A stretch of 64,000 bases of DNA from Cyanophora paradoxa CCMP329 (lineage: Eukaryota; Plantae; Glaucophyta). Each line of letters opens with the position of its first letter. The stretch's first letter is position 1. The position numbers and the translations under genes are program-made. Shown one piece after another: positions 10,252 to 15,124 of this stretch. The notes beneath the pieces were generated by a model. It searched no databases. It saw only the letters and a program-made list of their open reading frames with translations, and was not told where the DNA came from. The stretch covers positions 186,001 through 250,000 of the forward strand of contig QPMI01000133.1 of assembly GCA_004431415.1 (NCBI GenBank), written 5' to 3'.

Positions 10252-10764
10252 GACGTTCGCGACTTTGGACAAAAGTTCACGTCGACGTTCGCGACTTTGG
10301 ACAAAAGTTCACGTCGACGTTCGCGACTTTGGACAAAAGTTCACGTCCAAAATCCTCAAGCATGCTGGCGCACCCCCGCGCATGTCTCGCGCAATCTAGA
10401 CGCTAATATAGCCTCAATTACACTATAAGAGACGACTAGACTAGCTGCTAGCCAATTTGGGCGACGTTCTGAAGTTCGTGACTTTGGACAAAAGTTCACG
10501 TCCAAAATCCTCAAGCATGCTGGCGCATCCCCACGCGTGTGTGGCATGATCAAAGCGCTAGTATAGCCTCAATTACACCACAGGAGACTACTAGACTACT
10601 TGCTAGCCGATTCGGGCGCCGTTCTGAAGTTCGTGACTTTGGACAAAAGTTCACGTCCAAGGTCGCCTAGTGACTTTGGACAAAAGTTCACGTCCAAGGT
10701 CGCCTAGTGACTTTGGACAAAAGTTCACGTCCAAGGTCGCCTAGTGACTTTGGACAAAAGTTCA
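10252..10764. repeat. Array of 8 copies of GACTTTGGACAAAAGTTCA
   Basis: Copies start at 10261, 10293, 10325, 10480, 10635, 10672, 10709 and 10746 (spacings 32, 32, 155, 155, 37, 37, 37). Confidence 0.95.
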
Positions 10765-10774
10765 AGAGCAATCT

Positions 10775-11352
10775 CTAGGCCTTATCGATCTGGCTATCCT
10801 TATCACTGTCAGGCTTGATGATCTTCGAGATCTCTCCGCGAATGCGGCGTGCAAGTTGAATGTCCTTCGGCATGATAGTGACGCTGCAACGGAAAACGAT
10901 TAGAGGATTGCAGGATATGACAAAAAGCAAGTTGGCTCACCGTTTAGCATGAATCGCGCACAGGTTAGCATCTTCGAACACTCCCACCAGGTAAGCCTCG
11001 GCGGCAGTCTGGATCGCCAGCATGGCGTGCGACTGGAAGCGCAAGAGGGGATTAATGTCCTGAGTGATCTCGCGAACGAGTCGCTGGAATGGCAGCTTGC
11101 GAATCAGGAGATCCGTGGTCTTCTGGTACTTGCGGATCTCGCGCAACGCCACAGTGCCTGCAATCGTGATAATTAGATGAAAGCGACGGACGCACAGCTG
11201 CAGGGAATCCGTTGCTTACCTGGGCGATAGCGATACGGTTTCTTGACTGGGCTAGCCGCAATCGCGCGTTTCTTGGCTACAATGCTCAGTCTCGCCTTGC
11301 GTTCAGCGTTGTCTACAGTGCGCTTGGTCGGGTTGGCCTTCACGCGCGCCAT
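10775..11352 (-). CDS. H3: Histone H3 variant, 3 exons (11352-11220, 11157-10941, 10883-10775), 152 aa
   Basis: GT-AG introns 11219-11158 and 10940-10884 restore [21 protein letters not shown]...[23 protein letters not shown]. Tail is divergent and the C-terminus is extended. Confidence 0.93.
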
Positions 11353-11449
11353 GTTTGCTGCTCGCACTCTATGTAGCTAGATCTGGAGGAGTGAGCCGCC
11401 TGGGGAAGTTGAGATGGGCACCTTTGATGGAAGCATGGGTACGCTAGCG

Positions 11450-12136
11450 CTGCCTGGGAAGTTGTTTTTCACTTTTTCGGTTCACTTTGAAGCCAGCGGC
11501 GAAGCGACTTGTTTTTCGATTATTTTAACAACTTCGAAGTCATTTTTTGATCATATATATATTCAATGTATCTACTAGTAGCCTAGTAGCAGGTACTATG
11601 GAGGCCTGGAGGCTGGGGCCCGGGGGCCTGGGGCCCGGGCCCCGCGCAGGGCTGCAGCTGGTTTTCAATGATATTCACAACTTCGAAGTCGTTTTTTTGC
11701 CTGCCTGGGAAGTTGTTTTTCACTTTTTCGGTTCACTTTGAAGCCAGTGGCGAAACGACTTGTTTTTCGATTTTTTAACAACTTCGAAGTCATTTTTTGA
11801 TCATATATATATTCAATGTATCTACTAGTAGCCTAGTAGCAGGTACTGGGCCTGGAGGCTGGGGGCCTGGGGCCCGGGCCCCGCGCAGGGCTGCACGCAG
11901 GGCTGCAGCCTCGGGCCTGGCCACAAAAAAATAGCTTGAAAGTGACCGGAAAAACCAAAAAATAACTTCCAAGTCGGACGCTGATTGGCCGATGTGACGT
12001 AACACGAGCCTCGGAGCCAGCCGGCCTGGGGCCCCGGGGCCCGGGCCCCGCGCAGGGCTGCAGCCTCGGGCCTGGCAACAAAAAAATAGCTTGAAAGTGA
12101 CCGGAAAAACCAAAAAATAACTTCCAAGTCGGACGG
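11450..12136. repeat. Nested direct duplications between the H3 and Rep genes
   Basis: About 11450-11658 is repeated at about 11701-11910, and about 11865-11980 at about 12035-12135. ACTTCGAAGT/ACTTCCAAGT motifs recur. Confidence 0.85.
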
Positions 12137-13167
12137 CCTCGGAGCATAATACTGATAAAGTACAGACCTTAATATTCTGCATTACGGTAGCTAGTAGTAT
12201 AGCTATAGCTAGAGCCGGCGCACCGGTGCCATAACACTGCCATTACTGTGCAGTACACTGCCGTACCGCCGGCGCGGTCGACGTCGATATCGCCGAGTCG
12301 ATCCGGTCCCGGGCCTCCCGCGGCCGCCATGCAGACTCCCGGCCCGCCGGCGCCGCCGGGCCGGCGCGGGTCCGCCGCGTACCGTACTAACCGTAGTACT
12401 GTGGCACGCGTACCGTACTAACCGTAGTACTAGCTATACTATGATAGTCAGGTCCGTCGAGATCCGTGGTAAGTTTGCGGCACGGAACCTTGACATGATT
12501 GGCCCGGCCCTGGCAAGCAGCCGGCGCCGCCGGCTCAGCGGCTGGGAAAAACAATGCAAAACCAACTTTGAAGTCATCACTTTGAAATTGGAACTACAAA
12601 TTAAGGTTATATTTGATAGAGTTTCAACTGTACCCTAAAGCTGAACATCACTGTACCACTCCTTCTTTTTTTTCACGAGCAGGAGCGTAGAACTTCTCCA
12701 GCGAGCAGCTGAGCGAGCGGGGTGCACGCCGCCTTTGCGAGCATTCATAGTTCATCATAGAGCACCGTTTCCAGCTGTCCGCGGCGCCCGTACGTGTAGA
12801 ACTTTCCAAGCCTTCCTCATGGCTTGCACTGCTACGTCCTCACCATCGCGCACTCAGATCGCTTGAAACAAGTTTGGAACACGATATATAACACCTTCGA
12901 AGCCTCTAATCCGTGCGCCAGCCGCCCTCGCAGAGCACCCGTTGCTTTCGCCGAGTCGAATTCATTTCATTCACTTTCTTTCGAATTCGAATTCCAACTC
13001 GAACTTCGGAAGCGGTTAAGGCATAATAAGTTTTAATAAAATAACGTTTTAAATTTTAAATTATTGGGTACACGATTATTCAGATATTGATAGTGACCAG
13101 CTACATACTTTTATTTAATTTAATTTTGTAATTTGGCTTACCGTTTGTTATTAACGCAGATCAGACC

Positions 13168-14698
13168 ATGGACAACTTCGAAGTCGGAATGCAATTGGTG
13201 CACGTGAACAATTATGGGCCCGCGCCTGCAGCTGCGGGCGCCGGCGCCGGCGCCGGCGGTCCAGTGCCCGCCGCCGCGCCAGCTGCGCATGCAGCTCCAG
13301 CTGTGACTAGGGTCAAGCCGCCCAAAAAAAGTGTCCTGTTCCACTTCGTGATCACGGTAGAAGTCATCGTCGATCCGGAAACTGGTCGGGACACCTGGAG
13401 AGTCCTGCCAATCACGGGCGAAGATTCATTGTTCAACATGCCCGGGTTCGAGCACCTGCGCTACTGTTGCTACCGCATGCGACGCAACCCTATCAACCCT
13501 GGGACGGTCCTGCTCGAGGTATGCATTCGGATGTCATATTCATATGCATATTCGTGTAGATTATTCATAGATGTGTCTACGCACATTCGCAGGGGATGCT
13601 TTACTACTATGAGCAACGTTACTTCACGAATGTGAAAATGGCCTTTCGAGGCTCCGGATTCAACATCAGTTGGCCTCGCATTGCGAACCTAGACAGGAAC
13701 CGCAACTTGCAGGCTCTGCGTACACGCTACATGTCGGGCGAGCAAATCGCGTTTGCTGAGCACGGCGACATTGTCAACCAGAGAGGCGCTCGGAGGGACC
13801 TTCGAGACATGGAGGAGTGGATCGTGGAAAATCAGGCCACATTTGATCAGGTAGCGATCAATAGCCTATATATCTAGTTAATAGCTAGGCCTTTATAAAA
13901 TAGCTAATCGCATGTGCATATATATATGACAATCGAAAGTCAGAAATTCCTAAGCTTGTAGTTGCAATTGCAGACGTAGTTCATCTTTAATTTTAATTCG
14001 AATTCCTGATCAGGTCGCGGACCACTTCTCACACAAGGCTATCAAATACCGCTCTTTTTTGACGGAACTCTGCTCCTTCAATACCCCACCAAAGCCGGAG
14101 ACGAGCATTACCCTTATTTGGGGAGACGCTGGATCTGCGAAGTCATCTGCCATCAGGAGCCTTCCTGGAGTCTACTTCAAGCCTAAAATCAGCAACAAGC
14201 AGGGTGATAATGACTTCTGGACGACTGATTACAAGGGTGAGAGTATTGTATGCCTGGACGAGTTCACAGGCGAGTACTCCATCGAAACCATCAATGGCTG
14301 GTGCAATCCTGGGAACATACGAGTTCGGGTTCTCTATGGCTGGATCGCGTTGTGCGCCACAGAGATCGTCATTATCTCGAACGACTTCATCAGAAACATG
14401 GCAGCTCTGCAGGGTAATTAGTTATATAATTAATTATGAAAGATGACTTTCGCAACTGATCCTGTAACCTAACTCAGATACTTCTGAGGCCGTTTGGACC
14501 GCCTTTTTCCGCCGTGTTAAGAAAGTGATCCGGATGAATGGCAAGGTCGCTGAGGCCCGCAATGGCGCCGCAATGGCAGGCGCTGCACCCGTAGTGGTCA
14601 ATGCAAACAACCGTCCTGCTCAGGAGGTTATTGCTGAGATTGTGAACGCGACGGGAATCAACCAGGACGACGACCAGGATCAGGACGATCAAGAGTAA
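13168..14698 (+). CDS. rep: Spliced CRESS-DNA-virus (circovirus-like) Rep/SF3 helicase homologue, 4 exons (13168-13518, 13593-13850, 14014-14413, 14478-14698), about 409 aa
   Basis: Three GT-AG introns join frames cleanly. Motifs in order: FHFVIT (I), VLLEGMLY (degenerate II), RYMSG (III-like), EHG..QRGARRDL linker, WGDAGSAKS (Walker A), FWTTDYKGESIVCLDEF (B), IVIISN (C), AFFRRV (Arg finger). Confidence 0.85.
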
Positions 14699-14716
14699 AT
14701 TAAATACATTCATTGT

Positions 14717-14892
14717 GAAAAATCAGCTATAGCTAGGTTTCTTGTGAGCCAAAGGCTACGCAAGCTGGCTATAGTCAACGCTTTTGAAAATCAGCTAGGT
14801 TTCTTGTGAGCCAAAGGCTACGCAAGCTAGCTTTAGTCAGCTTTCGAAAATCAGCTAGGTTTCTTGTGAGCCAAATGCTACGCAAGCTAGCT
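14717..14892. repeat. Three tandem units of about 60-69 bp downstream of Rep
   Basis: AGCTAGGTTTCTTGTGAGCCAAA(G/T)GCTACGCAAGCT occurs three times. Confidence 0.92.
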
Positions 14893-15050
14893 GGCATTCT
14901 CTCCTGAGGCCGCAGCAGACCGCGCGCAAGCAACCGGGGCCCCAAGTACACCCACACACGCCCTCCTAAACTCAGTTCCGATATCTCCCTAAACTAACGC
15001 CTAATCAACACGTCCACTCTAGCTCACTAATTTCGCTCAATGATCACGCT

Positions 15051-15124
15051 TATAGGGGTGGACCCCTGATGGTAAAACCAGACTTTGGGGGGCGGTCTGG
15101 TTTGAGGGGGGGTCCTCCCCTTTA
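15051..15124. repeat. GC-rich nested inverted repeat (hairpin) at a compositional junction
   Basis: Outer arms 15051-15066 and 15109-15124 (14/16 complementary). Inner arms AAACCAGAC 15075-15083 and GTCTGGTTT 15095-15103. Confidence 0.85.

Follow-up and report, generated by a model that had tools for sequence, protein, structure and literature searches.

The first 20,800 or so bases (1 to ~20800) of the DNA analysed here, a 64,000-nucleotide window of the genome of the glaucophyte Cyanophora paradoxa CCMP329 (contig QPMI01000133.1, positions 186,001 to 250,000), form a low-GC viral stretch set in intron-rich host DNA of 60–80% GC. Within this stretch, between the pPolB gene and the fibre-like genes of a Polinton-like virus (PLV), lies a block (10252 to 15124, in window coordinates) with two genes of divergent orientation, one for a variant of histone H3 and the other for a CRESS-type Rep protein with a superfamily 3 (SF3) helicase domain. 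The features of the block and its borders are as follows.

10234 to 10248, plus strand: CCTTTA hexamer, in a 12/15 match to the right junction (15119–15133)
10252 to 10764: left repeat array built on a single core word, with units of 32, 155 and 37 nt (Tandem Repeats Finder, TRF, scores 192, 530 and 264)
10775 to 11352, minus strand: H3 variant gene, ATG at 11352, stop at 10777–10775, 152 aa, two introns
11219 to 11158 (62 nt) and 10940 to 10884 (57 nt), minus strand: H3 introns, GT..CAG
11362 to 12191: single-copy foldback-like stretch: duplications of 251 and 155 nt, inverted 40-nt copies (80% identity) and, at its end, a short high-copy motif at ~12155–12191
13168 to 14698, plus strand: Rep gene, ATG at 13168, stop at 14696–14698, 409 aa, three introns
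13519 to 13592, 13851 to 14013 and 14414 to 14477, plus strand: Rep introns, GT..CAG
14718 to 14892: right repeat array, 60-nt unit, 2.6 copies (TRF 14731–14892, score 282)
14905 to 15129: likely right end of a mobile element (14905–15100, hairpin 15054–15121, CCTTTA 15119–15124)

A preliminary description of the locus had reported two divergent intron-bearing genes among intronless viral ones. Both genes indeed remain open through all five GT-AG introns (GT..CAG in each case, as inferred from the sequence), and the viral genes outside the block are uninterrupted open reading frames (ORFs).

The second exon of the H3 gene matches the Pfam Histone family (E 1e-26), and the best PDB match of the core is an H3.3 (115 bits versus 109). 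Y41, H87 and L90, the plant-type H3.3 signature, are present in an intact H3 fold, and C110, H113, L126, I130 and R131 are kept. By these residues, the gene is a derivative of a plant-type H3.3. Y41, H87 and L90 are the plant H3.3 residues tied to deposition (PMC5809374, in excerpt). The tail aligns without gaps, and 19 of its 43 residues are identical to the closest fetched H3, compared with 78 of 90 in the fold. Lysines K4, K9, K18, K27, K36, K37, K56, K115 and K122 are kept. In contrast, T3, T6, R8, S10, K14, K23, R26, S28, G33, G34 and K79 are changed, although invariant in 101 fetched H3s (those of 111 that passed an identity filter), so that K79 is lost, as are the residues that surround K9, K27 and K36. 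The enzymes acting on K9, K27 and K36 depend on the residues neighbouring those lysines. The protein also has a 16-aa C-terminal extension. The combination of a preserved fold and a rewritten tail suggests selection rather than decay. A homologue search was dominated by fused H3 pairs, with a best identity of 83% among the 120 listed. None of 56 H3 loci in IMG/VR matched the pPolB, major capsid protein (MCP), ATPase, integrase or Rep of the window; the Rep alignment is too diverged for a locus scan, and these 56 loci are those in which a CRESS Rep in PLVs was screened for. One IMG/VR contig (L025, 9881–10276) carries an intronless, tail-rewritten H3 gene beside penton-like genes. It was set aside as an apparent giant-virus contig with weak penton-like matches.

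A search with Rep exon 3 among 1.84 billion proteins yielded 43 relatives at E ≤0.001, none below 1e-10. Viral_Rep was found in 19 and the SF3 family in 27 of the 28 relatives scanned, nine of the 10 looked up sit on contigs of 2.0–3.8 kb, and identity to any relative is 42% at most. None of 103 candidates was a longer protein matching exon 3, which is weak evidence. Against a profile of 29 relatives of 270–400 aa (14 excluded by length), the spliced Rep scored 118 bits over residues 170–361, a score that is not independent for the helicase because the relatives were found with exon 3. The multiple alignment sets motifs I–III in register, and from end to end the protein has its nuclease, linker and SF3 helicase arranged as in circovirus-type CRESS Reps such as that of porcine circovirus 2 (PCV2; Pfam Viral_Rep PF02407 plus PF00910). 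The best match of the exon 3 model (pLDDT 83) is likewise the ATPase domain of PCV2 Rep (E 8.5e-7, TM 0.63).

The two halves of the protein differ in what they keep. The helicase core retains the Walker A K/S, the Walker B DE, the motif C N and the arginine pair. In the nuclease, the catalytic Tyr and the motif I Thr are retained; however, the main splice model lacks four residues that are each present in 28 of the 29 relatives, namely the motif II His and Gln, the Glu preceding that motif and the motif III Lys. The nuclease is thus probably inactive. The 3' end of Rep intron 1 (13519–13592) reads in frame as HxQG, perhaps because the intron arose by duplication and left this relic, or because an alternative splice form exists. 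The block holds no further long ORF that could be a capsid gene, and none of the four window matches to ANTATTAC, which we take to be the CRESS origin motif, falls in 10234–15129.

Copy numbers were estimated from the depth of public short-read contigs relative to single-copy contigs, and the ratios are rough. The stretch is present in 20 DNA-type rows from 19 studies in a run search, with no RNA row listed, which carries no information on expression; runs X1, X2, X6 and X21 were compared over 5000–21500, and X6 also over 9900–15300. The depth of Rep is 0.9, 0.9 and 0.9 (X1, X2 and X6), and one contig covers 12162–14760 with 0 differences. H3 stands at 2.2, 2.0 and 2.8 in the same runs (contig 10886–11247 in X1 and X2). 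In X6, an unbranched contig (10756–11247, 0 differences, ~2.8x) joins the array end to most of H3, and the contig across the junction of the pPolB start with the array (9912–10281) is at 2.3x. The body of pPolB reaches 6.6, 8.0 and 7.2. Overall, the viral genes on either flank are at roughly 4–14 copies. On the other side of Rep, 14905–15100 is at 6.7x and 15149–15300 at 8.0x, and the hairpin (position 15087) rises to 40, 35 and 48x. Depth steps lie at ~11361, 12190 and 14790, single-copy depth beginning by ~11361, 9 nt upstream of the H3 ATG (X6); the X6 contigs 11332–11479 and 11923–12107 have depths of 48–49. A single-copy host contig begins at 20775. Linkage across the arrays is deduced from matching depths, since no listed contig crosses them. 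One X21 contig has its match limited to 15033–15129 (with 9 differences and one gap), and another 1140 of its letters are without a listed window match. X21 pieces on H3 exon 2 (46–60 nt, 4–9 differences) were not counted as expression, and apparent joints at 12049–13260 in the contig comparison were discarded as GC-rich chance matches (side 19–24 nt).

The preliminary description had offered two views of the cassette, a module of the virus or an autonomous Rep element carrying a histone. The first does not fit the cassette as a whole, because with Rep at ~0.9x and pPolB at ~7–8x, Rep is not consistently linked to the virus. Its viral linkage survives for H3, tied to the array and the pPolB side in ~2–3 near-identical copies, but not for the single-copy Rep. 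The second view is right in that the hairpin end is dispersed in tens of copies, but dispersal does not extend to the cassette as a whole, whose nuclease is probably inactive.

The ends of the block give a similarly mixed picture. Both of the repeat arrays said to bracket it are present and, like the hairpin, greatly exceed chance expectation, but they are unrelated in sequence (longest common exact word, 7 nt) and are therefore not matching ends. Variant forms of the left array are present in other copies (X6 bins at depths of 512–1234, loose ends at 10361, 10457 and 10697). In metagenomes, its core word was found at four loci, none of which extends to the rest of the window; two look bacterial, with a 26-nt match. 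The hairpin reported at the right end of the block is there (15054–15121, z −3.4), equal stability being reached in 0 of 200 shuffles; the 11 IMG/VR loci with the hairpin pattern showed no further match, and no Rfam family was found within the block. For the hairpin family, the CCTTTA copy at 10234 is unlikely to be the left end. The bin 10081–10261 has a depth of 352.7, compared with 346.9 expected from two viral contigs, with no high-copy spike; those contigs account for the whole depth, so that this end is probably not one common to the abundant hairpin family. A better match to the right-junction word, 13/15, also occurs at 13890, in Rep intron 2.

The stretch at 11362–12191 is a candidate for the left part of the Rep element. 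Its paired inverted 40-nt copies (80% identity, 11454–12128), within the 251- and 155-nt duplications, resemble a foldback or miniature inverted-repeat transposable element remnant. The motif at 12155–12191 has an X6 bin mean of 967 (bin 12072–12252) versus ~50, and four contigs run on upstream of it into a common different sequence; it belongs either to the hairpin family, as the inner portion of its left side, or to another dispersed repeat. An 18-nt perfect inverted match joins 12275–12292 in the cassette and 20854–20871 in host DNA just past the viral end (E 0.02 in the window).

The arms that flank the block carry PLV markers, the packaging ATPase, pPolB and integrase being recognised by Pfam and the MCP by inference.

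1 to 10233: PLV left arm, with two penton-like ORFs, MCP, A32 ATPase, rve integrase and pPolB
2165 to 3553: MCP, labelled from size, position and weak matches, with no profile match
5664 to 6851, minus strand: rve integrase (Pfam rve_3)
6823 to 10149, minus strand: pPolB (Pfam DNA_pol_B_2)
Left arm: packaging ATPase (Pfam A32)
15129 to 15614, plus strand: 5'-truncated fibre-like gene with a C1q-like end
15637 to 20804, plus strand: right viral arm, with three fibre-like genes, a zinc-finger ORF, an AdoMet-decarboxylase-like gene and terminal repeats; AT-rich and CpG-poor

The penton labels of the two left-arm ORFs come, like that of the MCP, from size, position and weak matches. The MCP has a single homologue (P0044, 65%, a EukProt record), and searches with MCP and pPolB yielded no related viral contig. 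The left end of the virus lies outside the window, and statements on helicases and terminal repeats cover its visible part; with that limit, the claim that there is no other helicase holds, none being found by Pfam in the scanned viral ORFs. The fibre genes said to flank the block are present, but the first is truncated at its 5' end. Its homology to the neighbouring fibre gene begins only at ~15129, and nothing of comparable score to its missing front half was found in 10150–10260. A clean insertion into a single gene or spacer therefore does not describe the block.

The arms also differ in composition. The observed/expected (o/e) CpG ratio is 1.27–1.36 for pPolB and integrase, 0.69–0.93 for the capsid and ATPase genes and 0.44–0.65 for the right arm, and the GC content at third codon positions (GC3) is 0.55–0.57 for pPolB/integrase, 0.27–0.39 for the right arm, 0.70 for H3 and 0.66 for Rep. 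By trinucleotide profile, pPolB and the right arm are distinct and the capsid region is intermediate; composition therefore cannot settle whether the arms are one virus or two. The conserved right arm (16571–20804), at 175–294 times single-copy depth in one bin, marks a very large PLV family in the host genome. Next to the viral terminus lies the AdoMet-decarboxylase-like gene (19176–19577, Pfam E 6e-11), and the terminal region contains a duplicated 113-nt hairpin-forming unit with 9-nt repeats (19669–20076), whose Rfam miRNA matches are far under the cut-offs.

We favour, with a probability of roughly 0.55, a two-step patchwork: capture of an H3.3 variant by a PLV subfamily, then the arrival next to it of a mobile element of Rep type; the pairing of H3 and Rep is probably an accident in one copy. 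The subfamily would have taken up a host H3.3 gene, the tail of which changed afterwards and which would now sit with the array and the pPolB side of the virus in ~2–3 copies. A single-copy Rep-type element, extending from ~11.36 or 12.2 kb to 15.13 kb, would have inserted 9 nt upstream of H3 and removed DNA up to the middle of the fibre gene. Its hairpin end would be the site recognised by an HUH Rep, as in other rolling-circle transposons, with Replitrons as the model, and short relatives sharing only that end would have spread to tens of copies. Rep itself would keep a hexameric SF3 ATPase core; its main form probably cannot nick, so that a move would depend on help in trans from a related Rep, or on alternative splicing with a first intron of 41 nt (13519–13559). 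As for the histone, its H87/L90 core would load the variant into chromatin outside S phase. The integrated virus would then be wrapped in nucleosomes poorly read by host K9/K27 silencing enzymes, because K4, K9, K18, K27 and K36 are kept but not their neighbours; this is a hypothesis from sequence alone. That a PLV subfamily carries its own H3 variant has, in our view, a little less than an even chance.

Several observations weigh against the patchwork. Contig depth is not copy number, rare variants are lost from contigs, and the sample behind the window may itself be among the runs. No listed contig spans 10281–10756, 14760–14905 or 15100–15149, the contig comparison did not reveal a left end of the Rep element, and upstream of 11361 no sequence of the other H3 copies appears among the contigs. 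A second Rep copy, expected from recent copy-and-paste, is absent at 85% identity, and the similar depth (~7–8x) of pPolB, 14905–15100 and 15149–15300 is also what a single virus family carrying an old insertion would show. In Rep, two helicase positions differ from the relatives: Walker A G to A (G in 29/29), a change that occurs in MCM helicases, and motif B' K to L (K in 24/29). The nuclease half alone scores −0.7 bits against the relatives' profile, a value reached by 46 of 248 scored shuffles, so the assignment of the nuclease motifs rests on the full-length alignment. The 41-nt intron form, in contrast, scores 4.2 bits on the nuclease profile (0/257 shuffles) and restores Glu, His and Gln as E-x8-H-x-Q, a spacing found in relatives, with the Lys still missing. 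We consider it improbable as a true splice form because its added codons are AT-rich, its acceptor is TAG versus CAG in the other four introns, the spacing in relatives agrees with the main form, and the Lys is not regained.

The agreement of depths on both sides of the block (pPolB 6.6–8.0x, 14905–15100 6.7x, 15149–15300 8.0x) would also be expected of one virus family of ~8 copies with an old inherited module of array, H3, Rep and hairpin, most copies having lost the interior and this one being full. The two arms summed have the normal size of a PLV (15–30 kb, PMC10120064), CCTTTA with its 12/15 match lies on both flanks of the block, and the scanned viral ORFs include no helicase. The nuclease-dead Rep would in that case be a viral origin-binding helicase like the polyomavirus and papillomavirus initiators, and a helicase kept with the nuclease lost is the pattern of inactivated HUH origin-binding domains (PMC6668415, in excerpt). 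We nevertheless regard this explanation as unlikely: Rep is found in ~1/8 of the copies, the fibre gene is cut, the hairpin is at 35–48x, CpG o/e and GC3 differ between pPolB/integrase and the right arm (with the capsid genes intermediate), and endogenous PLV genes are described as intronless (PMC10120064). We also give little credence to a PLV nuclear persistence module, made up of a silencing-resistant H3.3 variant and a non-nicking, origin-binding Rep helicase acting on array and hairpin; if true, it would be an independent repeat of the step behind polyomavirus large T and papillomavirus E1.

Equally improbable, in our judgement, is that two unrelated viral insertions surround host-like DNA, or that copies were misjoined at the arrays in the assembly, the outcome named in the preliminary description as its refutation. 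The left virus would end at ~10776, with a TCT end of the kind found at Polinton termini, its insertion site being the 3' end of an H3 gene; it is within such rival explanations only that the left array is retained as the terminal repeat of the virus. The H3 stop codon does fall at the ~10776 junction and the C-terminus is non-standard, the composition of the cassette is nearer to host and pPolB than to the right arm, the depths of the arms differ more than 20-fold in their conserved parts, and the arrays are not spanned by any listed contig. However, many terminal copies should cause branching at 10776, and the contig that links the array with H3, which starts at 10756 and stands at 2.8x, passes this position without a branch. 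The relatives of Rep are of viral type only (9/10 looked up on 2.0–3.8 kb contigs), and both Rep and the host flank agree with the runs at 0 differences. About as improbable, finally, is an autonomous Rep-helicase transposon reaching from 10234 to ~15129, with short direct repeats as bounds and the histone as cargo. On the minus strand, the direct repeat CCTTTA becomes TAAAGG, the terminal repeat of Replitron-1 (PMC10288648, in excerpt), the hairpin end is shared by tens of copies, and the 41-nt intron form gives E-x8-H-x-Q as in relatives. Yet there is no depth spike at 10234, the orientation of the repeat relative to Rep is opposite to that of Replitron-1, the 13/15 match also lies in intron 2, H3 and the pPolB junction are in more copies than Rep, and the motif III lysine is absent in both splice forms.

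Compared with known systems, Rep most resembles CRESS proteins in its domains, but unlike the genes of CRESS viruses it has three spliceosomal introns, is integrated, is accompanied in the block by neither a capsid gene nor ANTATTAC, and has lost nuclease residues. With Replitrons, the element shares a CRESS-related Rep with introns, a size of 2–4 kb, a right-end hairpin, what may be a low-copy master with commoner short copies and the hexamer of Replitron-1 (excerpted text of Craig 2023, PMC10288648). In the same excerpt, the right ends of Replitrons have a hairpin, are common to short non-autonomous copies (~50 nt of the ends) and lie at rearrangement breakpoints. The block has such a right-end hairpin, with the right end at 35–48x and the body at 0.9x, but the left hexamer copy is not supported as an end. 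Replitrons, as described there, are devoid of a helicase and keep HUQ and GYxxK, whereas the window Rep has a fused SF3 helicase, degenerate motifs and the hexamer reversed; its exons gave no match to the Replitron Pfam family. Helitrons combine a Y2 Rep with an SF1B (Pif1) helicase (PMC10288648, in excerpt), and with SF3 and one Tyr the window Rep is not a Helitron.

Geminivirus- and parvovirus-like transposons (Liu et al. 2011, PMC3198968, in excerpt) are Rep-helicase genes of single-stranded DNA viruses in eukaryotic repeats, one of them with a terminal hairpin, as here. They differ in having terminal inverted repeats and transposase ORFs, or a capsid gene, and no histone; the word 'intron' does not occur in the excerpted text. 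Polyomavirus large T and papillomavirus E1 likewise keep the helicase with the nuclease off (inactivated HUH plus SF3; PMC6668415, in excerpt). According to that excerpt they lack all three motifs and belong to circular viral genomes, whereas the window Rep keeps the Tyr and the motif I Thr, and its origin role is hypothetical. Histones are core genes of mirusviruses and occur in a few nucleocytovirus lineages (PMC12768974). Relative to giant-virus or mirusvirus H3 and to plant-type H3.3, the window H3 has a tail rewritten around kept lysines, has lost K79, is extended at its C-terminus and has introns and PLV neighbours. Nested mobile elements in PLVs, GC-richer guests disrupting fibre genes as here, are described in the excerpted part of PMC12220804; those guests are retrotransposons of 4–9.5 kb, whereas the one here is of Rep type. 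Excerpts of two further papers describe mobile helicases located at the ends of PLVs and poxviruses (PMC11296320) and helicase fusions in PLVs (PMC12721341). The literature searches listed no report of a histone in a PLV, nor of an intron-bearing Rep-SF3 transposon; the supplementary gene tables of PMC12220804 and PMC10120064 were outside their scope, and could list a histone or Rep absent from the main texts.

Beyond the virus, the host DNA of the window contains an inverted duplication of ~2 kb (29500–31600 versus 57970–59990, 85–98% alike) with a weak Exportin-5 match. It also contains an array of 16 units of ~363 nt (41179–47034), each with a conserved 140-nt part, which resembles a repeat-protein gene with repeated exon-intron units.

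If our interpretation of the histone is true, an H3.3 that keeps its lysines but loses the contexts read by silencing enzymes would be a simple route for an integrated virus to stay inducible. The Rep, for its part, is a lone, deeply diverged CRESS-type protein that appears to have gained three introns, with its motor kept and its cutter probably lost; it points either to a repurposed helicase or to a class of Rep-helicase transposons intermediate between CRESS viruses and Replitrons.

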